This document shows positions 7,743 to 64,000 of a DNA stretch of 64,000 bases, one piece after another. Under the pieces are notes generated by a model, which saw only the letters and a program-made list of their open reading frames with translations, was not told the DNA's origin and did no database searches. Each line of letters begins with the position of its first letter. The first letter of the stretch is position 1. A program made the translations under genes and the position numbers. Origin of the DNA: Escherichia coli (GTDB lineage: Bacteria; Pseudomonadota; Gammaproteobacteria; Enterobacterales; Enterobacteriaceae); the NCBI RefSeq assembly GCF_030013205.1, contig NZ_CP122648.1. The stretch is one strand, 5' to 3'.

Positions 7743-8654
7743 GTGCCTCGTATGCAAATCACCAACATGCATTGCAGTGGACAAACCGTTTCACTTGCCG
7801 CGGGGGATTATCACGCGACTATCGTGACGGTTGGTGCTGGTCTGGCTGAATTAACTTTTCAGGGTTGTCATTTAGTCATCCCACACAAACCCGAAGAGAT
7901 GCCGCTGGCGCATCTGGGTAAAGTGCTTATTCCGTGGCCGAACCGGATCGCCAACGGCTGTTATCGCTATCAGGGGCAGGACTATCAGTTACCCATTAAT
8001 GAACATAGTTCAAAAGCCGCTATTCACGGGCTGCTTGCCTGGCGTGACTGGCAAATTAGCGAATTAACCGCCACCAGCGTTACCCTGACAGCTTTTCTGC
8101 CGCCCAGTTACGGCTATCCGTTTATGCTGGCTTCACAAGTTGTTTATTCGCTCAATGCACGCACGGGTCTTTCCGTTGAGATCGCAAGCCAGAATATTGG
8201 TACTGTGACCGCACCTTATGGTGTGGGTATTCATCCTTATTTAACCTGCAACTTAACATCTGTTGATGACTATCTTTTCCAGCTTCCGGCAGAACAGGTT
8301 TATGCCGTCGATGAGCACGCAAATCCGACAACGCTTCACCACGTTGATGAGTTGGATTTAAATTTCACGCAGGCGAAAAAAATAGCCGCGACAAAAATCG
8401 ACCACACCTTTAAAACCGCTAATGATCTGTGGGAAATGACCATTACCCATCCACAGCATTTGCTTTCGGTGAGCCTCTGTTCCGATCAACCCTGGGTGCA
8501 GGTTTATAGCGGTGAAAAATTACAGCGTCAGGGACTGGCAGTTGAACCTATGAGTTGCCCGCCTGATGCGTTTAATTCCGGCACCGATTTAATATTACTG
8601 CAACCCGGAAAAACACACCGCCTGTTTTTTAATATTTACGGACAGAGAAAATAA
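7743..8654 (+). CDS. yihR: Aldose 1-epimerase family protein (sulfoquinovose mutarotase)
   Basis: 303-aa ORF from a GTG at 7743; an alternative ATG start at 7752 (MQITNMHCSG) has a better-spaced RBS. Start uncertain. Confidence 0.85.
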   Translation: MPRMQITNMHCSGQTVSLAAGDYHATIVTVGAGLAELTFQGCHLVIPHKPEEMPLAHLGKVLIPWPNRIANGCYRYQGQDYQLPINEHSSKAAIHGLLAWRDWQISELTATSVTLTAFLPPSYGYPFMLASQVVYSLNARTGLSVEIASQNIGTVTAPYGVGIHPYLTCNLTSVDDYLFQLPAEQVYAVDEHANPTTLHHVDELDLNFTQAKKIAATKIDHTFKTANDLWEMTITHPQHLLSVSLCSDQPWVQVYSGEKLQRQGLAVEPMSCPPDAFNSGTDLILLQPGKTHRLFFNIYGQRK

Positions 8655-8858
8655 CTTGTATTGATTAGCAGTCAAAATCATTGAAGAACATTTCACTCGC
8701 TAAAGGCAACGTTATGTATCATCAATTTATTAAGTTAAAAACAGCTCAGCTTCTTTAAAGTTTATATATATCAGTTTTATGAGAATCATTTTACATAAGC
8801 CTGTAATAACAATAACAGGAAGGAAACAACCTCGTTCTCAACTCTATGGAGATTATTT

Positions 8859-10895
8859 ATGGATACGCCACGCCCACAGTTATTAGATTTTCAATTTCAT
8901 CAGAATAACGACAGTCTTACCCTACGTTTTCAGGGCCGTCTTATTTTAACCCATAGTAAAGATAATCCTTGTTTATGGATTGGCTCAGGTATAGCGGATA
9001 TCGATATGTTCCGCGGTAATTTCAGCATTAAAGATAAATTGCAGGAGAAGATTGCGCTCACCGACGCTACCGTCAGCCAGTCACCGGATGGCTGGTTAAT
9101 CCATTTCAGCCGTGGTTCTGACATTAGCGCCACGCTGCGTATCTCTGCCGACGAACAGGGCCGTTTATTGCTGGAACTACAAAACGACAACCTTAACCAC
9201 AACCGTATCTGGCTGCGCCTTGCCGCTCAACCAGAGGACCATATCTACGGCTGCGGTGAACAATTCTCCTACTTTGATCTGCGCGGCAAACCGTTCCCGC
9301 TATGGACCAGTGAACAAGGCGTTGGTCGCAACAAGCAAACCTATGTCACCTGGCAGGCCGACTGCAAAGAGAACGCGGGCGGCGACTATTACTGGACTTT
9401 CTTCCCACAGCCTACGTTTGTCAGCACGCAGAAGTATTACTGCCATGTTGATAACAGTTGCTACATGAACTTCGACTTTAGCGCCCCGGAATACCATGAA
9501 CTGGCGCTGTGGGAAGACAAAGCAACGCTGCGTTTTGAATGTGCTGATACATACATCTCCCTGCTGGAAAAATTAACTGCCCTGCTGGGACGCCAGCCAG
9601 AACTGCCCGACTGGATTTATGACGGGGTAACGCTCGGCATTCAGGGCGGGACGGAAGTGTGTCAGAAGAAACTGGACACCATGCGTAACGCGGGTGTGAA
9701 GGTTAACGGCATCTGGGCGCAGGACTGGTCCGGGATCCGTATGACCTCTTTTGGCAAACGCGTAATGTGGAACTGGAAGTGGAACAGCGAAAACTATCCG
9801 CAACTGGACTCACGTATTAAGCAGTGGAACAAAGAGGGCGTGCAGTTCCTGGCCTATATCAACCCGTATGTAGCCAGCGATAAAGATCTCTGCGAAGAGG
9901 CGGCAAAGCGCGGTTATCTGGCAAAAGATGCCTCTGGCGGCGACTATCTGGTGGAGTTTGGCGAGTTCTATGGCGGCGTTGTCGATCTCACCAATCCAGA
10001 AGCCTACGCCTGGTTCAAGGAAGTGATCAAAAAGAACATGATTGAACTTGGCTGCGGCGGCTGGATGGCTGACTTCGGCGAGTATCTGCCCACCGACACG
10101 TACCTGCATAACGGCGTCAGCGCGGAAATTATGCATAACGCCTGGCCCGCGCTGTGGGCGAAATGTAACTACGAAGCCCTTGAAGAAACGGGCAAGCTCG
10201 GCGAGATCCTCTTCTTTATGCGCGCCGGTTCTACCGGTAGCCAGAAATACTCCACCATGATGTGGGCGGGCGACCAGAACGTCGACTGGAGTCTCGACGA
10301 TGGCCTGGCGTCGGTTGTCCCGGCGGCGCTGTCGCTGGCAATGACCGGACATGGCCTGCATCACAGCGACATTGGCGGTTACACCACCCTGTTTGAGATG
10401 AAGCGCAGCAAAGAGCTGCTGCTGCGCTGGTGCGATTTCAGCGCCTTCACGCCGATGATGCGCACCCACGAAGGTAACCGTCCTGGCGACAACTGGCAGT
10501 TTGACGGCGACGCGGAAACCATCGCCCATTTCGCCCGTATGACCACCGTCTTCACCACCCTGAAACCTTATCTGAAAGAGGCCGTCGCGCTGAATGCGAA
10601 GTCCGGTCTGCCGGTCATGCGCCCGCTGTTCCTGCATTACGAAGACGATGCGCACACTTACACCCTGAAATATCAGTACCTGTTAGGTCGCGACATTCTG
10701 GTCGCTCCGGTGCATGAAGAAGGCCGTAGCGACTGGACGCTCTATCTGCCGGAGGATAACTGGGTTCACGTCTGGACGGGTGAAGCGTTCCGGGGCGGGG
10801 AAGTTACCGTTAATGCGCCCATCGGCAAGCCGCCGGTCTTTTATCGCGCCGATAGCGAATGGGCGGCACTGTTCGCGTCGTTAAAAAGCATCTAA
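8859..10895 (+). CDS. yihQ: Sulfoquinovosidase (glycoside hydrolase family 31)
   Basis: 678-aa ORF; GH31-like; preceded by a 204-bp AT-rich intergenic region. Confidence 0.9.
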   Translation: MDTPRPQLLDFQFHQNNDSLTLRFQGRLILTHSKDNPCLWIGSGIADIDMFRGNFSIKDKLQEKIALTDATVSQSPDGWLIHFSRGSDISATLRISADEQGRLLLELQNDNLNHNRIWLRLAAQPEDHIYGCGEQFSYFDLRGKPFPLWTSEQGVGRNKQTYVTWQADCKENAGGDYYWTFFPQPTFVSTQKYYCHVDNSCYMNFDFSAPEYHELALWEDKATLRFECADTYISLLEKLTALLGRQPELPDWIYDGVTLGIQGGTEVCQKKLDTMRNAGVKVNGIWAQDWSGIRMTSFGKRVMWNWKWNSENYPQLDSRIKQWNKEGVQFLAYINPYVASDKDLCEEAAKRGYLAKDASGGDYLVEFGEFYGGVVDLTNPEAYAWFKEVIKKNMIELGCGGWMADFGEYLPTDTYLHNGVSAEIMHNAWPALWAKCNYEALEETGKLGEILFFMRAGSTGSQKYSTMMWAGDQNVDWSLDDGLASVVPAALSLAMTGHGLHHSDIGGYTTLFEMKRSKELLLRWCDFSAFTPMMRTHEGNRPGDNWQFDGDAETIAHFARMTTVFTTLKPYLKEAVALNAKSGLPVMRPLFLHYEDDAHTYTLKYQYLLGRDILVAPVHEEGRSDWTLYLPEDNWVHVWTGEAFRGGEVTVNAPIGKPPVFYRADSEWAALFASLKSI

Positions 10896-15334: not shown

Positions 15335-16600
15335 TTAAGCTTCAGCCGCCAGCATCTCTTTCTTACGTTGGCTAATACGCTTAACCAGCATTACGGAAAC
15401 CACCGCACCACAGAATGCGAAGCAGGCCATAATGCCAAACACGATTTTGTAGCCAATAATCCCCGGATTTAAATCCAGAATGTAGCCATACAGACTGAAG
15501 CAGAACATCGCCGGGGCGTAACCAATAAAGCTACCCAACGCCATCGCCGCGCCTGTTTTATTTTCAGCAATTTTTGCTTCGCCGATAGGTGCAAAAAATA
15601 CGGCTCGCTGTGTAAAGACTATCGCGCCAAAGCCCAGCGTACATGCCATCCCTAAATATACCGGCATACTTTCGTGCGGCAGCATAATCAACAGTACGAG
15701 CGCAGCGGTACTGATGATAAAGGTGTAGCATAGATATTTACTCGGCGATTTCAGGATCTTATCTGAAATCATGCCACCAATCGGTCCACCAATCATTTTC
15801 AGACAGTATTGGTTAATGATGCCGTAAGCCCCCACCAGCGCAACGGGCAATAGATAGATGTTTTTCAGGAATGGAATGAAGAATGTCAGGCCACAGTAAA
15901 CCGCGTAAACGAAGAAGACGTTGAAAGCGATAAGCCAGATAGTTTTGTCTTTCAGCACCGAGGTCATACTGGTGTTTTTCGATGCTCCGTCTTCTTTTTT
16001 CACCTCAACGGACGGTGCCTCTTCTTTGTCATTCAGAACAAAGAAAATGATAATGCCTACGGCAATCACAATAAGGGAATAGAACCAGATGCCTGCTTTA
16101 AAACCCAATAAGCCACTGCCAAACCAGGTAAATACTGCCAACGCAGAAAATGCCACCACGGTATCGACAATGCCACGCCCTGTTTCGAAGAAGCCAAACA
16201 ACCGACCTTGTTGTTCGCTATTGCCCAATCGACTTACCGACTTGAGCAAGACCGGCCAGTTCATCATGTCGCAAGTAACGCCAAATAGCGCCCAGACAAA
16301 GAGGATGCCCCAATACCCCGGCATTGTCGTCAAATAAACACCCAGTAATCCTGTCGCAATGAGTGAGAATGACATGGTGTATCTGCGCGGTAGTTTATCG
16401 GCAAAATAAATAGACAGAAAAAAGCCCACTGTCGTGACAAATGAGTTTACCGACATAGCATTACCAATTTGACCATTGGTCAAATGGAAATATTCCTGCA
16501 TCGGGATATAAAACGCATCTTTCAGCGACGGTAATTTATAAATTGTACCGCCACACAATGTTAATAGACTAAATAACGCCCATTTCTTTTTCGTGAGCAT
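15335..16600 (-). CDS. yihN: MFS transporter
   Basis: 421-aa ORF, polytopic hydrophobic; synteny with yihM/yihL. Confidence 0.9.
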   Translation of the reverse strand: MLTKKKWALFSLLTLCGGTIYKLPSLKDAFYIPMQEYFHLTNGQIGNAMSVNSFVTTVGFFLSIYFADKLPRRYTMSFSLIATGLLGVYLTTMPGYWGILFVWALFGVTCDMMNWPVLLKSVSRLGNSEQQGRLFGFFETGRGIVDTVVAFSALAVFTWFGSGLLGFKAGIWFYSLIVIAVGIIIFFVLNDKEEAPSVEVKKEDGASKNTSMTSVLKDKTIWLIAFNVFFVYAVYCGLTFFIPFLKNIYLLPVALVGAYGIINQYCLKMIGGPIGGMISDKILKSPSKYLCYTFIISTAALVLLIMLPHESMPVYLGMACTLGFGAIVFTQRAVFFAPIGEAKIAENKTGAAMALGSFIGYAPAMFCFSLYGYILDLNPGIIGYKIVFGIMACFAFCGAVVSVMLVKRISQRKKEMLAAEA

Positions 16601-16701
16601 AACATCCCCTAAGCGATTTTTAAAATCACTGTTTTAAAGGCAATAAGATACCGACCATTCATATCGAATGGTTTTATTAACTGCGTATGAGTTAAAACTT
16701 A

Positions 16702-20811: not shown

Positions 20812-22221
20812 ATGTCCGCTGAACACGTACTGACGATGCTGAACGAGCACGAAGTGAAGTTTGTTGATTTGCGCTTCACCGATACCAAAGGTAAAGAACA
20901 GCACGTCACTATCCCTGCTCATCAGGTGAATGCTGAATTCTTCGAAGAAGGCAAAATGTTTGACGGCTCCTCGATTGGCGGCTGGAAAGGCATTAACGAA
21001 TCCGACATGGTGCTGATGCCAGACGCATCCACCGCAGTGATTGATCCGTTCTTCGCCGATTCTACCCTGATTATCCGTTGCGACATCCTTGAACCTGGTA
21101 CCCTGCAAGGCTATGACCGTGACCCGCGCTCCATCGCGAAGCGCGCTGAAGATTACCTGCGTTCCACTGGCATTGCCGACACCGTACTGTTCGGGCCAGA
21201 ACCTGAATTCTTCCTGTTCGATGACATCCGTTTCGGATCTTCTATCTCCGGTTCCCACGTTGCTATCGACGATATCGAAGGCGCATGGAACTCCTCCACC
21301 CAATATGAAGGTGGTAACAAAGGTCACCGTCCGGCAGTGAAAGGCGGTTACTTCCCGGTTCCGCCGGTAGACTCTGCTCAGGATATTCGTTCTGAAATGT
21401 GTCTGGTGATGGAACAGATGGGTCTGGTGGTTGAAGCCCATCACCACGAAGTAGCGACTGCTGGTCAGAACGAAGTGGCTACCCGCTTCAATACCATGAC
21501 CAAAAAAGCTGACGAAATTCAGATCTACAAATATGTTGTGCACAACGTAGCGCACCGCTTCGGTAAAACCGCGACCTTTATGCCAAAACCGATGTTCGGT
21601 GATAACGGCTCCGGTATGCACTGCCACATGTCGCTGTCTAAAAACGGCGTCAACCTGTTCGCAGGCGACAAATACGCAGGTCTGTCTGAGCAGGCGCTGT
21701 ACTATATTGGCGGCGTAATCAAACACGCGAAAGCGATTAATGCCCTGGCAAACCCGACCACCAACTCTTACAAGCGTCTGGTCCCGGGCTACGAAGCACC
21801 GGTAATGCTGGCTTACTCTGCACGCAACCGTTCTGCGTCTATCCGTATTCCGGTGGTTTCTTCTCCGAAAGCACGTCGTATCGAAGTACGTTTCCCGGAT
21901 CCGGCGGCTAACCCGTACCTGTGCTTTGCTGCCCTGCTGATGGCCGGTCTTGATGGTATCAAGAACAAGATCCATCCGGGCGAAGCCATGGACAAAAACC
22001 TGTATGACCTGCCGCCGGAAGAAGCGAAAGAGATCCCACAGGTTGCTGGTTCTCTGGAAGAAGCACTGAACGAACTGGATCTGGACCGCGAGTTCCTGAA
22101 AGCCGGTGGCGTGTTCACTGATGAAGCGATCGATGCGTACATCGCTCTGCGTCGCGAAGAAGATGACCGCGTGCGTATGACTCCGCATCCGGTAGAGTTT
22201 GAGCTGTACTACAGCGTCTAA
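20812..22221 (+). CDS. glnA: Glutamine synthetase
   Basis: 469-aa [34 protein letters not shown]...; adenylylation site region NLYDLP present. Confidence 0.97.
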
Positions 22222-28943: not shown

Positions 28944-31730
28944 TTAGTGCGCCTGATCCCAGTTTTCGCCACTCCCCACTTCCACCAGCAGCGGCACATC
29001 CAGACGGGTACAGTTTTCCATCAGTTGATGAATCTGCTTCGCGACGGCATCGACATCATCTTTATGAACTTCAAATACCAGTTCATCGTGTACCTGCATG
29101 ATCATACGCACACGCGGTTGCTCAGCCTGTAGCCACGCATCAACGGCAATCATCGCCCGTTTGATAATGTCGGCGGCGGTTCCCTGCATTGGCGCGTTAA
29201 TGGCTGCACGTTCAGCCGCTGCACGACGAGCCCCATTGCTGGATTTGATATCCGGCAGATACAGACGGCGTCCGTCCAGCGTTTCAACGTAGCCCTGCTC
29301 TTTCGCCTGAGCACGGGTGCGTTCCATATACTCCAGCACGCCAGGGTAGCGTTCGAAGTAAAGGTCCATGTACTTCTGCGCTTCTTTACGTGGAATGTTC
29401 AATTGCCGCGCCAGACCGAAAGCACTCATGCCATAAATCAGACCAAAGTTGATCGCTTTCGCGCTACGGCGTTGCTCGCTGGTTACGGTTTCCAGTGGCA
29501 AACCAAACACTTCTGCCGCCGTAGCCCGGTGGATATCTTTTCCTTCCGCGAATGCGGTCAGCAAGCCTTTGTCACGCGAGAGATGCGCCATAATGCGCAG
29601 TTCAATCTGCGAGTAGTCCGCCGAGACAATCACATAATCCTCTGGCGCAATAAACGCCTGGCGGATACGACGACCTTCTTCGTTACGCACCGGAATGTTT
29701 TGCAGGTTAGGATCGGTTGACGATAAACGTCCCGTTGCAGTTACTGCCTGGTGATAAGAGGTATGCACACGCCCGGTTTTCGGGTTGATCATCAGCGGCA
29801 GCTTGTCGGTGTAAGTCGATTTCAGCTTCGCCAGACCACGATACTCCAGAATCACTTTTGGCAACGGATAGTCCAGCGCCAGTTCTTCCAGTACCTCTTC
29901 CGACGTTGACGGCGCGCCACCTGGCGTTTTCTTCAGCGGTTTAATGCCCTGTTTTTCAAACAGAATGGTTTGTAACTGCTTGGTGGAAGAAAGGTTAAAC
30001 TCCTCACCTGCAATTTCATGCGCTTTCTTTTCCAGCTCAGCCAGACGAAGAGTGAGCTCTTCAGAATGATTGTGCAGCACTTTCGGATCGATCTTCACAC
30101 CGTTACGTTCAATGCGTGAAAGCACCGGCACTAGCGGCATTTCGATATTCTCGAAGACGTTCAACGGACCTTTGTGTTTTTGCAGATCCGGCCACATTTT
30201 CAGATGCAGCTGCAAGGTGACATCTGCATCTTCGGCGGCGTAACGTCCGGCCTCTTCCAGGGCAATCTGGTTAAAGGTCAGTTGATTTTTACCTTTACCA
30301 GCAATCTCTTCAAAAGTGATGGTTTTGTGCTTCAACCAACGTTCCGCGAGGCTGTCCATATCGTGACGCCCGGCAACGCTATTGAGAATGTAGGACTCCA
30401 GCATGGTATCAAATGCAATCCCACGCAGCTCAATGCCGTAATTCGCCAGAATACCGCGATCGTATTTCAGGTTTTGCCCAACCTTCAGCGCCTTTTCATC
30501 TTCCAGCAGCGGTTTTAGCAACTCGAGTGCACGCTCGCGAGAGATTTGATCGGGCGCATCAAGATAATCATGAGCAACCGGAATATATGCCGCTACGCCT
30601 GGCTCGATAGCAAAAGAAAGCCCGACCAGGTTAGCAGAGATGTTATCAAGGCTGTCGGTTTCGGTATCAAATGCAAATACCGGCGCTTTTTCCAGCTTCG
30701 CAATCCACGCTTTCAGTGTTTCTTCATCAAGGATGGTGACGTAGTTGTCATAAGAAATCACCGTTGCCGTCACCTCTGGCGCTTCGTCTGCAACACTGGT
30801 TTCCTGCGGCCTGGCTGCGGGTTTCGCCCCTTTAGCCTGTAACCATTTGCCCGCTTCGACATCAGCAGTCCAGCGTTTGAACTCATACTTTTTGAACAGC
30901 CCCAACAACTCTTCCGCTGCCGGTTGCTGCACTTCCAGTTGTTCGCAGGTCAGCTCCAGTTCAACGTCGGTTTTAATCGTCGCCAGCTGGTATGAGAGAT
31001 AAGCAACTTCTTTGTTTTGCTCGAGCTTCGCTGCCATTGTTTTCGCGCCACGGAAGCTCAACCCGGCAATTTTTTCTGGCTCGGCATACAGCGTATCCAG
31101 TCCGCCAAGACCTTGCAGCAATGCCTGCGCGGTTTTTTCACCGACGCCCGGTACGCCAGGGATGTTATCGGAGGAGTCACCCATCAGCGCCAGGAAATCG
31201 ATGATCAGTTCTGGCGGCACGCCGTACTTATTCACCACCTCTTCCGGGCCGAGGATGGTATTCGTCATGGTGTTGATAAGCGTAATATTTGGCGTCACCA
31301 GCTGCGCCATATCTTTATCGCCAGTGCTGATCAGCACCGGACGCCCGGCTTTTTCGGCTTCGCGCGCCAGAGTACCGATAACGTCGTCCGCTTCTACGCC
31401 AGAAACCGCCAGCAGCGGCAGTCCCATCGCTTTAACCATCGCGTGCAGAGGTTCGATTTGTGCTCGCAGATCGTCCGGCATTGGCGGGCGATGTGATTTG
31501 TAATGTTCAAACAGTTCATCACGAAAGGTTTTTCCCTTGGCGTCAAAGACCACCGCTGCATGCGTCGGTTTATATTGCATGATCAGACTGCGCAGCATGT
31601 TGAGGACACCATACATCGCACCGGTCGGCTCGCCTGCGCTGTTAGTCAGCGGGGGAAACGCGTGATATGCGCGATAAAGATAAGATGAACCATCTACAAG
31701 GATAAGTGGATTTTGGTGGATCTGAACCAT
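28944..31730 (-). CDS. polA: DNA polymerase I
   Basis: 928-aa [28 protein letters not shown]...; 5'-3' exonuclease, 3'-5' exonuclease and polymerase domains. Confidence 0.97.
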
Positions 31731-32093
31731 AATGTCCGTGCCTGTTTATCAGATTATGGGTAAAGGATGCCACAGACAGGATGAAAACATGAGTTTTTCA
31801 CCGCTTTTCGTGAAAATCTTTTGTAGATCTTCTGGATCGCTCGCAAATCGTCATGTGGATAACTTTGTGCATAAATTATTTACATCGCTTTTAATTTATT
31901 ATCATGCTTTTTACAGCATGATGTTTGTCTTTGTTTTTCATGAAGTTAAAAATAAGACCATCCCTAGTAATTGAGATAATGGGATTTTTTCTAATGTGGA
32001 TAGATATGAATTATTTTTCTCCTTAAGGATCATCCGTTATTTGGGTCGTTTTCTGCTAAAATCTGCGCCTTGCGCTTCTTTAGCGCACTGTCT

Positions 32094-33066: not shown

Positions 33067-34497
33067 TTAATGAACAAAACGTCCGGCACGAGACATAAAT
33101 TCTTCTTCGCTCATTTCCTGTCCGTTAAAAACAACTTTACCCGGTGTATAACGCAGTTGCAGCGAGGCGGTATTGTTGTCAATCGTGATTAACTGAAACA
33201 TCTGACCTAATGTCATCATCCCGCTGATTTGTTTATCAGCCCGCTTTTGCGCTTTTTCAGCATCCATTCCTTCAGATAAATTAAGCTGTTTTGCGGTTTC
33301 TGTGACGACATTAAGCGGTAACTTCACATCAAAATTGAGCGATTTAATATCTTTGTTTGTGGATGATGAGGATTTGGCTGGGTCGGCAATACTGATATCC
33401 AGATTGGCATTTAGTTCGCCGAGTGCATTCTTCCATCTTACCGGTTGTTTAATGGTCGGCTCACTTTTTTGTAATAACGGTAAATACTCTTTGAACAATG
33501 CAGCATTCACTTCTTGCAGAGCAACTTCATCGTTTGCTAACTCAGGGTGTGCAGCAAGCTGCTTCTGCATCGCAATGTTATACTGGATGATAAATTGGCG
33601 CACCGCTGAAGGATCAATAGATTCAGCAATCAATGACCACTCACCACTACCGAGTTGCTGATTCCCTTTTGTTAACTTATCAAGTTCGTAGGTCAGATTG
33701 ACATTGATATAATCTTTGTCTTTAACGCGATCCAGCCTGGTTTTTGCAACGAAAGCATCGATTTGGGCAACGTCTTCCCCGTGATTGATAATGTTAATCT
33801 GATTAAATTTCGACTCGCTTTCACCAACCGGAAATTTCTTTTCTTCTAATCGCGCCAGAGAATCAATGGTAAAACTTTTTGCCGTTACTTTGTTCATTGG
33901 TGATAATTGCAGAACAATATCTTCGACTTTGCCTTCAATATCCAGGTTAGACAATGAACTACCATCACCATTAAAAGTAAACTGGCCCTCACCAAAAGAA
34001 AACTTTCCATACTCTGCAGGGGCAACATCTAATGTCGTAGAGAATGAGCCACCAAACGCGAATCGCAATGTCGCTTCCACGGGCGATTTATTTTTCGCGG
34101 CGATAAATAGCGGTTGTGTCAGTTCATTATTCACTAAGTTCACTTTTGCCGCTGCCAGTGCGGGGATGACATTACCACGCATTAACATTGTGATGGGCAA
34201 CGGACCGTGCTCAACATCCACATCAAATGCAACTTTCTGGCCTGGCTTGATATTGAGATCGGGTGCACCGTTATCAAATGTTATTTGCATTTGAAAATGA
34301 GAATTAAAAAAGCCTTTGTCAAAGTTTTTATAACTTAACGTCATATCGTAGGCATGTTCACCTTTCTTTTTAGCATCGTTAAAATCTTTAATGAACTTTT
34401 CGACACCAGGCTGAATTTGCGTACCTGTGTACCATGTGCCACCACCCCAGATTACGGCAAACGCAACAATAACACCTGTAGCTGACTTACGTATCAT
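33067..34497 (-). CDS. yihF: DUF945-family secreted/periplasmic protein YihF
   Basis: ORF 33067..34539 trimmed to MIRKSATGVIVAFAVIWGGG (signal-anchor-like); about 476 aa. Confidence 0.85.
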   Translation of the reverse strand: MIRKSATGVIVAFAVIWGGGTWYTGTQIQPGVEKFIKDFNDAKKKGEHAYDMTLSYKNFDKGFFNSHFQMQITFDNGAPDLNIKPGQKVAFDVDVEHGPLPITMLMRGNVIPALAAAKVNLVNNELTQPLFIAAKNKSPVEATLRFAFGGSFSTTLDVAPAEYGKFSFGEGQFTFNGDGSSLSNLDIEGKVEDIVLQLSPMNKVTAKSFTIDSLARLEEKKFPVGESESKFNQINIINHGEDVAQIDAFVAKTRLDRVKDKDYINVNLTYELDKLTKGNQQLGSGEWSLIAESIDPSAVRQFIIQYNIAMQKQLAAHPELANDEVALQEVNAALFKEYLPLLQKSEPTIKQPVRWKNALGELNANLDISIADPAKSSSSTNKDIKSLNFDVKLPLNVVTETAKQLNLSEGMDAEKAQKRADKQISGMMTLGQMFQLITIDNNTASLQLRYTPGKVVFNGQEMSEEEFMSRAGRFVH

Positions 34498-34595
34498 ATA
34501 AATATTCCCTGATAAAACAGCAAAACTTTGAATATCCACTTATGCTGAAATAATGTCCAGCGGCAGGATGCATTATCAGAATGTATTTATATTTA

Positions 34596-62167: not shown

Positions 62168-62980
62168 ATGGCAACAACACAACAATCTGGATTTGCACCT
62201 GTTGCATCGCCTCTCGCTTCGACCATCGTTCAGACCCCGGACGACGCGATTGCGGCGGGCTTCACCTCTATCCCCTCACAAGGGGATAACATGCCTGCTT
62301 ACCATGCCAGACCAAAGCAGAGCGATGGCCCACTGCCAGTGGTCATTGTAGTGCAGGAAATTTTTGGCGTGCATGAACATATCCGCGACATTTGTCGCCG
62401 TCTGGCGCTGGAGGGGTATCTGGCTATCGCACCTGAACTTTACTTCCGCGAAGGCGATCCGAATGATTTTGCCGATATCCCCACGTTGCTTAGCGGTCTG
62501 GTAGCAAAAGTGCCTGACTCGCAGGTGCTGGCCGATCTCGATCATGTCGCCAGTTGGGCTTCCCGCAACGGCGGCGATGTTCATCGTTTAATGATCACCG
62601 GATTCTGCTGGGGTGGACGTATCACCTGGCTGTATGCTGCGCATAACCCGCAACTGAAAGCGGCGGTGGCATGGTACGGCAAACTGACGGGCGATAAGTC
62701 GCTGAATTCACCGAAACAACCTGTTGATATCGCAACCGATCTTAACGCGCCGGTTCTCGGCTTATATGGCGGTCAGGATAACAGCATTCCGCAGGAGAGC
62801 GTTGAAACCATGCGCCAGGCGCTGCGGGCTGCTAATGCGAAAGCAGAGATTATCGTCTACCCGGATGCCGGGCATGCATTCAACGCCGATTATCGCCCGA
62901 GCTATCATGCCGAATCTGCGAAAGATGGCTGGCAGCGAATGCTGGAGTGGTTTAAGCAGTATGGAGGGAAGCGGAGTTAG
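62168..62980 (+). CDS. ysgA: Dienelactone hydrolase-family protein (carboxymethylenebutenolidase homologue)
   Basis: ORF 62102..62980 trimmed to MATTQQSGFAPVASPLAS (RBS ggag upstream); alpha/beta hydrolase with nucleophile elbow GFCWGG; 271 aa. Confidence 0.9.
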   Translation: MATTQQSGFAPVASPLASTIVQTPDDAIAAGFTSIPSQGDNMPAYHARPKQSDGPLPVVIVVQEIFGVHEHIRDICRRLALEGYLAIAPELYFREGDPNDFADIPTLLSGLVAKVPDSQVLADLDHVASWASRNGGDVHRLMITGFCWGGRITWLYAAHNPQLKAAVAWYGKLTGDKSLNSPKQPVDIATDLNAPVLGLYGGQDNSIPQESVETMRQALRAANAKAEIIVYPDAGHAFNADYRPSYHAESAKDGWQRMLEWFKQYGGKRS

Positions 62981-63371
62981 TTTCCTCTTAGTCTATATTT
63001 GAGATGGTGAGTGAACGAGTGCGTTTTGCTGCCATCTCTGTCCCCCAAAAAATAATCAGTATGAATTGATTGGAGAGCACGACTCCGCTATTTGACCTTA
63101 AGAAAGTCGGCAAGTAATAGTCATAAGTGAGTCTCTTCACTGGCAGACACCTTAGAGATTTACCATCAACTCCCATTCTCAAACAAACATTAATTATTAT
63201 CAACACATTCACATTAATTATAAATTATCTCAGACCTTCCTGATAAAAAGATATTAAAGTGAAACATTTTGTTTTTCACATTTTAGTTCATCCCTTTTAG
63301 GCGTAAATAAAGGTAAAAAATAACAATACTATTTTTCTTTCACAAAAGAATTAACAAAAGGTTTTTCAAGG

Positions 63372-64000
63372 ATGAGTGATATTATTTACCTGAACATAAC
63401 CGGAGAACAACAAGGATGTATTTCCTCTCGTTGTGGAACGAGCGCATCAATAGGTAATCGCTGGCAGATTGGCCATGAAGATGAAATCTTCGCGTTCTCG
63501 CTCTCTAATAGTATTACGAATACAGGCAAAGGGTCACAATTGCATGGCCTTAGTTTCTGTAAATTGATTGACAAAAGCTCCCCGTTACTTATTAACGCTA
63601 TTAACAATAACGAGCAGTTGTTCATGGAGTTTGACTTCTATCGGATCAATAGATTTGGTCGATGGGAGAAATATTACAACATTCAACTTCGCGGCGCGCT
63701 CTTATCAGCAATCAATCACCTGTTTACTGAGAACAATCTGGATACAGAAACCATCACTGTCAGTTATGAATATATACTCTCCAGGCATCTGATTGCTAAT
63801 ACTGAATTTAGTTATTTGGCATTTCCCGATAACTACAACCGTCTGTTTATACCACGGCCAAAAACTAAAGATGATAATGGCCTCAAAACACTCAATAGTA
63901 AAGCGGTTGGCAGACTGCTTGCTGCTGGCGGCATATACAATGGGAATATCGAAGGATTCAGGGAAACAGCAAACAAGTTGGGAGGAGATGCACCTGCTGG
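63372..64000 (+). CDS. Hcp-like (type VI secretion tube protein family) ORF with C-terminal extension; 3' end beyond the window
   Basis: ATG at 63372, open to the window end (at least 209 codons, checked codon by codon). N-terminus MSDIIYLNITGEQQGCISSRCGTSASIGNRWQIGHEDE... and internal LSFCKLIDKSSPLLINAINNNEQLFMEFDFYRINRFGRWEKYY match Hcp hallmarks (GHEDE, KxIDKSSPxL, FxFYRIN). An Hcp domain is normally complete by about 150-160 aa; this ORF continues (…IPRPKTKDDNGLKTLNSKAVGRLLAAGGIYNGNIEGFRETANKLGGDAPA…). Low-GC relative to flanking core genes. Not in the ORF track because no stop lies in the window. Confidence 0.7.
   Translation, partial: MSDIIYLNITGEQQGCISSRCGTSASIGNRWQIGHEDEIFAFSLSNSITNTGKGSQLHGLSFCKLIDKSSPLLINAINNNEQLFMEFDFYRINRFGRWEKYYNIQLRGALLSAINHLFTENNLDTETITVSYEYILSRHLIANTEFSYLAFPDNYNRLFIPRPKTKDDNGLKTLNSKAVGRLLAAGGIYNGNIEGFRETANKLGGDAPA

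Follow-up and report, generated by a model that had tools for sequence, protein, structure and literature searches.

An AT-rich synteny break downstream of ysgA in Escherichia coli: probable left end of a small accessory islet with a putative Hcp-toxin effector and immunity genes

Described systems closest to the ysgA-metE locus

Among the described systems, those closest to the locus presented here are the specialised Hcp effectors (Hcp-ETs) of Enterobacteriaceae (Ma et al. 2017, Virulence 8:1189), as summarised in reviews (PMC6730261, PMC6099711). A specialised Hcp effector is recognised by a C-terminal extension of more than 60 aa past the Hcp core of ~160 aa (PMC8262886). One of them, Hcp-ET3-4 of UPEC UTI89 (UTI89_C0121), is antibacterial in experiments according to the reviews (PMC6730261). 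Its "ET3" part is the IMT domain Pyocin_S (PF06958), an inner-membrane translocation domain that is reportedly tied exclusively to systems delivering nucleases into the cytoplasm (PMC9040868).

The locus described in our study is a short islet between ysgA and metE, which begins near the end of the window, i.e., of the whole 64,000-nucleotide stretch of E. coli DNA that was analysed. Its Hcp-ET resembles Hcp-ET3-4 in the N-terminal Hcp domain (67% identity over 171 aa) and in carrying a C-terminal extension, here a putative toxin. Both loci are orphans inserted between a pair of core genes, aroP/pdhR in UTI89 and ysgA/metE here, well away from the T6SS cluster, and in both of them one cognate immunity gene is followed by further, duplicated ones. 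On the other hand, the toxin part of Hcp-ET3-4 consists of Pyocin_S and Col-Pyo_DNase, neither of which occurs in the islet protein, and the putative immunity proteins of the islet are small and winged-helix-like, not of the colicin/pyocin type.

Nuclease bacteriocins (S-type pyocins, E-type colicins and klebicins) show a different kind of likeness, since the C-terminal domain of the islet protein is also found on many proteins with a pyocin/cloacin translocation domain, and a small cytoplasmic immunity gene lies directly downstream in the bacteriocins as well. However, the islet domain falls outside the five Pfam-covered nuclease classes of Sharp et al. 2017 (PMC5536347). It is predicted to be all-alpha and has no solved homologue, whereas HNH nucleases have the beta-beta-alpha-Me fold, and its carrier here would be Hcp and not a diffusible bacteriocin. 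With the Rhs, PAAR and CdiA systems the islet shares a conserved delivery scaffold whose C-terminal toxin tip varies, a recombination breakpoint within the toxin gene (identity between alleles falls after aa ~290), and a cognate immunity gene directly downstream, accompanied by an orphan immunity gene that matches another allele. It differs from these systems in its small scaffold, a tube protein of only ~150 aa, in its total length of 2.3 kb, and in that this copy has no orphan toxin fragments.

The chromosomal site itself has been recorded as "GR 29" (metE..ysgA), a 16-kb genomic region common to ExPEC model strains (PMC12928451). The site is identical to that of GR 29 as found in ExPEC/APEC, but in the lineage of the window it holds a 2.3-kb Hcp-ET islet that abuts ysgA and lacks metabolic genes. 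In the literature searched for ysgA, metE and Hcp and for CFT073 or UTI89 locus tags, nothing was found except the table entry for this 16-kb region.

Boundaries and content of the islet

We consider it quite probable that the AT-rich DNA behind ysgA is the left end of an accessory islet of 2.28 kb, which replaces the terminator spacer between ysgA and metE and would constitute a self-contained T6SS effector-immunity module. In K-12 MG1655 the two genes are convergent and 39 bp apart, an arrangement that the earlier, sequence-only reading of this DNA had given correctly, and the 39-bp spacer is a hairpin. Base-by-base comparison with K-12 places the end of homology nine bases before the end of ysgA (Table 1), so that the left boundary expected just 3' of this gene by the sequence-only reading was placed correctly to within nine bases. 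The final three codons with the stop of ysgA (62972-62980) are part of the inserted segment, and the protein ends in GGKRS* in the window vs GGKKSL* in K-12. An independent check with the segment 62801-63170 gave the same picture, as in the 4,397 genomes without this junction the match ends at query position 164-171.

Table 1. Positions of the features at the ysgA-metE locus, numbered along the window
Feature	Position	Strand	Remarks
ysgA	62168..62980	+	dienelactone hydrolase family; from the sequence and the RefSeq annotation of the identical locus
Islet left junction	62971..62972		62971 is the last K-12-homologous base, 62972 the first novel base
AT-rich islet leader, non-coding	62981..63371		391 bp, 33.0% GC
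IS1 target CATCCCTTT	63289..63297		9 bp, duplicated by 768-bp IS1 in other genomes
hcp-ET (annotated tssD), first 209 codons	63372..64000	+	runs past the window end; about 40% GC
Islet right junction	off-window, virtual position ~65251 (L001 22271/22272)		at the metE stop codon

The remainder of the islet was read from genome locus L001, which is 100% identical to the window over 62981-64000 and differs from it by indels upstream of ysgA; the other identity comparison covers 62801-63170. There, K-12 homology returns about 1.25 kb beyond the window end, one codon ahead of the metE stop. The expectation that the insertion had taken the place of metE holds in so far as metE is displaced, but its stop codon still follows about 1,250 bp past the end of the window. 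The sequence-only reading had named a few hundred bp as the distance at which metE would speak against it; the distance found is longer, but close.

The islet comprises 2,280 bp with 38.5% GC (51% in the window, 51-55% in the flanks) and stands in place of 54 bp of K-12, the 39-bp hairpin spacer included, with the last codons or stop codons of both ysgA and metE changed at its junctions. It consists of a 391-bp spacer, the hcp-ET gene for 377 aa, an overlapping 85-aa candidate immunity gene and an 81-aa orphan candidate immunity gene, beyond which a perfect 12-bp hairpin precedes the metE stop outside the window. RefSeq annotates tssD and two small ORFs at the identical locus and nothing else; this annotation contains no integrase or other mobility gene and no tRNA target within the islet, and Rfam finds no RNA family in the spacer or the islet. 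Flanking direct repeats, for which the sequence-only reading had proposed to look, did not appear, as the search for direct or inverted repeats at the borders returned only short chance matches in two copies. The locus thus has the deviant composition and patchy strain distribution of a classical genomic island, but not its mobility gene, tRNA or repeats, and both junctions fall at stop codons of protein genes. The accessory island supposed earlier is therefore an accessory insert indeed, but not a large one. We regard it as an ordinary accessory islet, belonging to the known type of specialised Hcp effectors.

Across the rest of the 64 kb, none of 1,250 overlapping windows of 391 bp has a GC content as low as that of the leader (minimum 33.5%, mean 51%, sd 4.9%). 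As to the H-NS silencing suggested by the sequence-only reading, AT-richness is what was observed, and the silencing itself is conjecture. RefSeq places no gene in the leader at the identical locus, and its sole ORF (74 aa, GTG start, minus strand, 62988-63212) lies in a region missing in E. coli 536. In the alignments, made with E. coli 536, AHM8C160RI, E2348/69 and K-12, the B2-type islet of E. coli 536 shares roughly the last 200 bp of the leader only (~63170-63371), in diverged form. The sequence-only reading was accurate in describing about 390 bp of AT-rich, non-coding DNA followed by a low-GC plus-strand gene; that this gene would encode a T6SS Hcp-toxin fusion, with immunity genes behind it, was not foreseen there. 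The leader is presumably the promoter and regulatory region of hcp-ET. Sigma-70-like hexamers number 15 on both strands vs 7 expected, which gives no indication of function. In at least 14 other genomes a 768-bp IS1 sits at CATCCCTTT, 75 bp upstream of the hcp-ET start codon; it is absent from this site in the window.

The complete hcp-ET product of 377 aa begins with the Hcp domain (aa 1 to ~150), continues with a linker that holds a Gly/Ala-rich hydrophobic stretch (aa 220-236), and ends, beyond the window, with the predicted all-alpha toxin domain (aa ~250-377). The Hcp/TssD assignment follows from Pfam PF05638 (aa 6-135, E = 1e-14) and from TIGR03344, with a score of 124.9 bits vs a curated cut-off of 58.9, and the extension of ~215 aa is of the length expected for a specialised effector. 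The ORF is intact in genomes identical to the window. Its exact product occurs on at least 1,000 contigs and served as the query for a cluster that counts 1,511 member sequences at 90% identity. The list of Hcp-ETs assembled by Ma et al. in 2017 reportedly has more than 350 entries. Accessions of the present protein do not occur in the supplements of PMC11148199.

The C-terminal domain and the small downstream genes

The putative toxin domain of ~130 aa gave no match in NCBIfam, in PDB sequences (phmmer/hmmsearch) or among PDB folds, and in the protein, partial and full, as well as in 36 aligned homologues, Pfam matches were confined to the Hcp domain even at E <= 10. As the domain lacks any family or structure match, its biochemical activity can be judged only from the company it keeps. 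A total of 462 cluster representatives (50% identity) match it at E <= 1e-3, and in most of the best 150 carriers, ranging from 130 to 5,200 aa, the match sits at the C-terminal end. The carriers include Hcp, PAAR and Rhs proteins, with a VgrG and an Eag-type chaperone adjoining the PAAR carrier, and giant proteins of 5,000 aa; Pyocin_S was present in seven of the 32 carriers scanned, others had WXG100 or the eCIS core domain, and S-type pyocin and colicin-like proteins appear among the AFDB matches. The domain is accordingly reused by other delivery systems and behaves, as judged from these carriers, like a polymorphic toxin module. Residues H288, R304, D319, H325, E326, E329, W352 and H356 (numbering of the 377-aa protein) are invariant, and the conserved residues are all present in the islet protein.

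The domain belongs to none of the five named Hcp-ET domain families, and the putative toxin is of a class outside those described. The names "HNH endonuclease" and "colicin", which NCBI applies to fragments of the protein, were rejected as unsupported, as neither HNH or colicin-DNase profiles nor the beta-beta-alpha-Me fold were recovered. Likewise, a "pyocin S3" or colicin-DNase type as in Hcp-ET3-4 was discarded, since the similarity ends with the Hcp domain. By analogy with its neighbours in domain architecture, the activity would most likely be that of a metal-dependent nuclease or another hydrolase. More tentatively, the domain could stand for a toxin superfamily that is so far uncharacterised, novel in fold and perhaps in activity, and common to T6SS effectors (Hcp, PAAR, Rhs), pyocin-like bacteriocins, probably T7SS and eCIS cargo and cyanobacterial toxin-antitoxin-like pairs, and neutralised by a single family of small winged-helix-like immunity proteins; this wider reading is possible, though we would not yet favour it.

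Directly behind the toxin domain, the 85-aa ORF overlaps the hcp-ET stop (ATGA, off-window in L001), which is the position of a cognate immunity gene. It is homologous (24-29% identity) to ORFs lying directly downstream of PAAR-toxin and Rhs-toxin genes in unrelated genomes, which are of equal length and share a common motif, and its product also matches the N-terminal part of the HicB-like proteins that accompany stand-alone toxin homologues in cyanobacteria. A small homologous ORF thus follows the toxin domain in the PAAR, Rhs and stand-alone contexts. Inspection of the 85-aa sequence revealed no signal-peptide-like hydrophobic segment at the N-terminus. The 81-aa second gene is a paralogue of the first. 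In another locus (L007), the toxin allele is near-identical up to residue ~290 and then diverges, and it is followed by a different cognate immunity gene, whose product is 88% identical to the 81-aa orphan protein of the islet. Position and conservation fit the assignment of both small ORFs as immunity genes. Databases call these winged-helix-like proteins "MarR regulators" or "hypothetical". The MarR-family name, given by some sources to both, is not borne out by profile searches: the sole hit was EarA-like and non-significant (E = 0.21), and NCBIfam gave none.

According to the model that we propose, the AT-rich leader would drive hcp-ET, whose product joins the Hcp tube domain covalently, via the linker, to the C-terminal toxin domain. 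The fusion would presumably enter the Hcp tube of a T6SS encoded elsewhere on the chromosome, with one fusion subunit per ring beside ordinary Hcp subunits, as a published structural argument suggests, and be fired into neighbouring bacteria, where the toxin domain would act in the cytoplasm. The translationally coupled 85-aa protein would shield the producer, while its 81-aa paralogue may guard against the alternative toxin allele that circulates at the same locus in other E. coli. As for the machinery, E. coli AR_0067, a strain distinct from that of the window but 100% identical to it over 62981-64000, carries at aspV a complete T6SS cluster (tssA, B, C, E, F, G, J, K, M, dotU/tssL, a ClpV-like AAA ATPase, two hcp, vgrG and rhs). 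One of the AR_0067 Hcp proteins is 38% identical to the Hcp domain of the fusion. A complete T6SS was thus seen in at least one islet-identical genome; the window itself shows none for its own genome.

Distribution, origin and possible role of the module

The accessory nature proposed by the sequence-only reading is borne out by the patchy distribution among 5,426 complete E. coli genomes. The islet is carried by 848 of them (about one in six), the exact ysgA junction of the window by 365, and a K-12-like junction by 3,537 (65%). The islet is present in a group with at least 99% identity, in B2 strains such as 536, CFT073 and UTI89, in O145:H28 and in IAI39, with fragments in Shigella. Between ysgA and metE, a further and larger island (at least 8 kb) with metabolic genes (fdrA, arcC, cytosine permease, tkt, ptsG-like and hxlB) occurs in B2 strains, and the Hcp-ET islet of E. 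coli 536 sits at the metE-proximal end of the variable region. In E2348/69, the short spacer is kept beside metE, behind a 3' remnant of ysgA. As a recombination hotspot, the ysgA-metE interval shows at least four states, among them empty, islet, metabolic-island and combined forms.

Such a distribution could also arise if the islet were ancestral to E. coli and lost in K-12-like genomes, in which case the break would be a K-12 deletion and the window the retained state. The presence of the islet in these distant lineages would agree with this, as would the divergence of the B2 copy (5-10% in the leader and Hcp region), which is comparable to that of ysgA itself between lineages (91-95% identity) and expected under long residence, and no mobility gene or repeat accounts for repeated site-specific insertion. 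Nevertheless, we find this explanation rather unlikely. The GC content of the islet departs from that of its flanks, most genomes carry the short spacer, which contains a bidirectional hairpin of its own, this spacer survives in E2348/69, and the altered last or stop codons of ysgA and metE are expected from a replacement event. Furthermore, relatives in other Enterobacteriaceae occupy unrelated chromosomal sites and a conjugative plasmid, with a small downstream ORF each time. An acquired islet in place of the spacer remains our preferred reading.

Another explanation, which we hold to be improbable, is that the module is mainly a defensive immunity locus or a silent relic, with hcp-ET unexpressed or unsecreted and selection acting on the two immunity genes against either toxin allele. 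Degraded copies would suit such a role. In L005 the frameshifted tssD still precedes a small ORF whose product shares its protein accession with the cognate immunity protein of L007, and only fragments of the toxin gene, 142-229 aa long, are left in UTI89, APEC O1 and Shigella. Since many genomes have degraded copies or IS1 between the leader and the gene, the module is often dispensable. The match of the orphan immunity gene to the alternative allele points in the same direction, and so does the leader, as very AT-rich DNA is known to be bound by H-NS. Against this, the 377-aa ORF is intact in window-identical genomes, its product is abundant in the sequence clusters, the conserved toxin residues are complete, and at least one such genome has a complete T6SS.

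Finally, the pair could act inside the producer as a toxin-antitoxin or abortive-infection module with the Hcp fusion being incidental, as the ~136-aa stand-alone homologues of filamentous cyanobacteria are followed by an overlapping gene in a type II-like layout, whose product joins an immunity-like N-terminal part to a HicB-like antitoxin C-terminal part, and as the winged-helix-like immunity proteins bear the MarR name in some sources, but this is highly improbable given a toxin covalently fused to a full Hcp domain above the curated TssD threshold and close to that of the reportedly antibacterial Hcp-ET3-4, and other carriers with delivery domains (PAAR with VgrG and an Eag-type chaperone, Rhs, Pyocin_S).

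If the wider reading of the toxin domain as a new superfamily is true, about one in six E. coli, including the well-studied strain 536, would bear an unstudied interbacterial weapon at ysgA-metE, and so would CFT073 and UTI89, judged from single protein matches. The module would probably aid strain-against-strain competition in the gut, also in clinically isolated, human-associated strains. With regard to annotation, "TssD" at this site would be an effector and not a structural tube gene, and the two "hypothetical/MarR" ORFs would be immunity genes. Genomes with toxin A, immunity A and orphan immunity B, set against those with toxin B and immunity B, would offer a natural experiment on immunity specificity. 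As the toxin domain is widespread, yet has no family, solved structure or known activity, it may serve as a cheap and well-defined target for toxin and immunity biochemistry.

The ysgA–metE junction

The DNA that follows ysgA is very probably a type VI secretion system (T6SS) effector-immunity islet of the Hcp-ET type, standing in place of the ysgA–metE spacer. The sequence-only reading had described an AT-rich, non-coding stretch and then a low-GC plus-strand gene at a position where K-12 carries convergent metE, and each of these points was borne out. In K-12 MG1655, ysgA and metE are convergent and separated by 39 bp, which form a G+C-rich hairpin. RefSeq records with the sequence of the window annotate no gene in the AT-rich spacer, and an Rfam search of it gave no match. 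Its sole ORF (74 codons, GTG start, minus strand) falls within a stretch of the spacer that the copy of E. coli 536 does not have. The GC content of the spacer is lower than that of all 1,250 overlapping 391-bp windows compared elsewhere in the window (minimum 33.5%; 50.8% for the window as a whole), and silencing of this leader by H-NS would be plausible from composition alone. Other low-GC patches, at ~8500-8900, 16350-16650, 31650-32050 and 34250-34500, reach 34-37% in 391-bp windows, all above the spacer.

Features at the ysgA–metE junction (window coordinates)
Feature	Position	Strand	Properties	Basis
ysgA	62168-62980	+		sequence, RefSeq annotation
Novel segment (islet)	62972 to virtual 65251			
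AT-rich spacer (leader)	62981-63371		391 bp, 33.0% GC	composition
IS1 target in other genomes	63289-63297		75 bp upstream of the hcp-ET start codon	compare genome locus L011, 1818-2594
hcp-ET	from 63372, past the window end	+	~40% GC	sequence, composition

The left boundary had been expected just 3' of ysgA. Base-by-base comparison with K-12 places the last homologous base at 62971, at the 3' end of the gene and nine bases short of its last base, and as a consequence YsgA ends in GGKRS (stop) instead of the K-12 GGKKSL (stop). The sequence beyond the window was taken from E. coli AR_0067, which, like many other genomes, shows 100% identity over 62981-64000. There, K-12 homology picks up again one codon before the metE stop, which is TGA in AR_0067 versus TAA in K-12. 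The novel segment thus amounts to 2,280 bp in place of 54 bp of K-12, meaning that metE was moved by 2.3 kb and not lost: it is absent where K-12 has it, as anticipated, but present beyond the islet, with its stop ~1,250 bp past the window end, as judged from AR_0067. GC content of the islet is 38.5%, versus 55% for both ysgA and metE. Integrase, transposase or tRNA genes were not found among the annotated features of the islet, and the search for flanking direct repeats proposed earlier returned nothing meaningful at its flanks; a perfect 12-bp hairpin lies immediately before metE, in place of the K-12 terminator.

States of the site among E. coli genomes

Among 5,426 complete E. coli genomes, the K-12-type junction is present in 3,537, the left kilobase of the islet in 848 at ≥ 90% identity (258 at ≥ 99%), and its right part in 857. 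An ancestral islet that was lost in K-12 would be an unlikely history. The exact ysgA-to-spacer junction of the window occurs in 365 genomes. The remaining carriers, such as E. coli 536, have a larger island of metabolic genes (fdrA, arcC, cytosine permease, LysR, transketolase (tkt), a PTS gene and hxlB; also at loci L004 and L008; B2 strains), with the islet adjoining hxlB at the end that faces metE, and only the last ~200 bp of the leader are in common with the window. In 536 the Hcp-ET islet lies between this metabolic island and metE. The larger island is probably the 16-kb region that appears as 'GR 29, metE..ysgA' for ExPEC strains in PMC12928451. E2348/69 carries the metabolic island without the Hcp-ET islet, and its metE-side border (L003 7950-8085) consists of a ~45-bp remnant or duplicate of the ysgA 3' end and a K-12-type hairpin spacer, which suggests that the metabolic island may have inserted into the end of ysgA with duplication. 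With K-12-type, islet, metabolic-island and combined arrangements, the site has at least four states and is a hotspot.

Degraded copies of the islet are common, among them a frameshifted tssD and, in UTI89, APEC O1 and Shigella, fragments of 142-229 aa. A 768-bp IS1 with a 9-bp target duplication (CATCCCTTT) cuts hcp-ET off from most of the AT-rich leader in at least 14 complete genomes whose sequence is otherwise 100% identical. Relatives in other Enterobacteriaceae occupy unrelated sites, namely the interval between an MFS/LysR pair and mnmE, the neighbourhood of ggt in Salmonella, and a conjugative plasmid, and in two of them (L015/L016 and L018) a small ORF overlaps the toxin stop codon. 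One relative, of 342 aa and sharing the toxin domain, is encoded on a conjugative-plasmid-like contig (L018 4001-5905, Logan contig SRR30193479_126), directly after traI and a DsbA-like gene; downstream of it lie an 86-aa ORF, a Colicin_immun-family gene and an EcoRII-type restriction-modification system.

The Hcp fusion and its probable secretion machinery

The islet consists of three genes in a single orientation: hcp-ET, which encodes a 377-aa protein annotated as TssD, an 85-aa ORF that begins at an ATG overlapping the stop of TssD (ATGA), and an 81-aa ORF 60% identical to it. The N-terminal ~150 residues of the 377-aa protein form an Hcp domain (PF05638; TIGR03344 score 124.9 bits against a cut-off of 58.9), 67% identical to that of UTI89 Hcp-ET3-4, which belongs to the 'Hcp with extended toxin' effectors of Ma et al. 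2017, according to the reviews PMC6730261 and PMC6099711. Hcp-ET3-4 has an equivalent orphan position (aroP/pdhR in UTI89) and repeated immunity genes downstream, whereas its C-terminal part, Pyocin_S with Col-Pyo_DNase, is unrelated to that of the window protein. A Gly/Ala-rich hydrophobic stretch, LLIAGASIVAGVVLGRM, lies off-window at aa 220-236 (AR_0067 locus L001, ~21049-21099; mean Kyte-Doolittle 2.0), just before the toxin domain, and many unrelated carriers have a comparable stretch ahead of the domain. Since the window-type protein is without Pyocin_S, this stretch could interact with the membrane or aid translocation.

The T6SS cluster of AR_0067 is complete and lies at aspV, ~0.93 Mb away from the islet; it comprises tssA, B, C, E, F, G, J, K and M, dotU/tssL, a ClpV-like AAA ATPase, tagH, vasI, two hcp genes, vgrG and an Rhs effector. 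The cluster lies outside the window, so for the window's own genome the machinery rests on identity to strains like AR_0067. The Hcp domain of the fusion shares 38% identity with one of the Hcp proteins of the cluster, and it has been argued on structural grounds that an Hcp ring can take no more than one extended subunit, together with five ordinary ones (PMC13323088), which suggests that the fusion may be loaded as a single extended subunit among ordinary Hcp. The islet is probably active in the window's lineage. Elsewhere in AR_0067, a small island by tRNA-Thr (thrW; L009 13815-20285) holds an AbiEi/AbiEii toxin-antitoxin pair, a 1,069-aa 'RNA-directed DNA polymerase' and an integrase remnant, and looks like a defence islet.

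Putative toxin domain and immunity genes

Residues ~250-377 have no match in Pfam, NCBIfam or PDB sequences. When 1.84 billion cluster representatives were searched exhaustively, the domain had 462 relatives at E ≤ 1e-3; the match is C-terminal in most of the best 150 of them, in carriers of 130 to 5,200 aa that include Hcp, PAAR and Rhs proteins. Among 32 further carriers scanned, seven contain Pyocin_S and others LysM, WXG100 or an eCIS core domain. In AFDB50, the fold ends many proteins from Pseudomonas, Serratia, Salmonella and Klebsiella that are named 'S-type pyocin' or 'pyocin/cloacin translocation domain'. Across an alignment of 36 diverse copies, the invariant residues are H288, R304, D319, H325, E326, E329, W352 and H356 of the full protein (pattern H, R, D, H-E-x-x-E, W, H).

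The small ORF directly 3' of the toxin domain is kept across delivery systems. It encodes 79 aa in a VgrG-chaperone-PAAR-toxin operon and 91 aa after an Rhs toxin (29% and 24% identical to the 85-aa protein, with the same conserved positions), while the partner of a stand-alone cyanobacterial toxin, with a HicB-like domain, resembles it over its N-terminal 80 residues. Because of this recurrent pairing, its main evidence, the 85-aa ORF is predicted to encode the cognate immunity protein; the name 'MarR family regulator' that some sources give it is probably wrong in view of the same pairing. In Pfam it has only an insignificant EarA-like match. Right-hand islet parts 80-90% identical to the window type occur in ~114 genomes. 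A second allele at the ysgA–metE site, e.g. in strain AHM8C160RI, encodes a 382-aa protein that is nearly identical to the window-type protein through residue ~290 and divergent after it. The cognate immunity protein of this allele shares 88% identity with the second, orphan immunity protein of the window-type islet, which therefore comprises toxin A, immunity A and orphan immunity B, the typical pattern of polymorphic toxin loci. That the islet is kept mainly for immunity seems improbable.

Filamentous cyanobacteria commonly have the toxin domain as a stand-alone protein of ~136 aa (~90 similar proteins; e.g. L014 3001-3893, Microcoleus vaginatus); the partner gene overlaps the toxin gene and ends in the HicB-like antitoxin domain, a toxin-antitoxin-like use of the pair. 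For the islet pair, such an intracellular role is very hard to credit. Pyocin_S is the inner-membrane translocation domain and is reported to be tied exclusively to systems that bring nucleases into the cytoplasm (PMC9040868), and on inspection the islet immunity proteins lack a hydrophobic, signal-peptide-like segment at the N-terminus. We infer from the Pyocin_S carriers, the signal-less immunity proteins and the cyanobacterial pairs that the target would be cytoplasmic, most likely nucleic acid. A nuclease is a tentative assignment of nearly even probability, and the domain is not among the five Pfam-covered classes of nuclease bacteriocins (PMC5536347).

Systems of this kind are known, and hundreds of RefSeq genomes already have the genes annotated, as TssD and hypothetical proteins, so that the break in synteny is in itself ordinary. 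The accessible literature and libraries contain no description of the toxin domain or its immunity family, which belong neither to the five published Hcp-ET clans nor to the known nuclease-bacteriocin classes; a more interesting reading is that the domain may represent a new toxin fold or activity.
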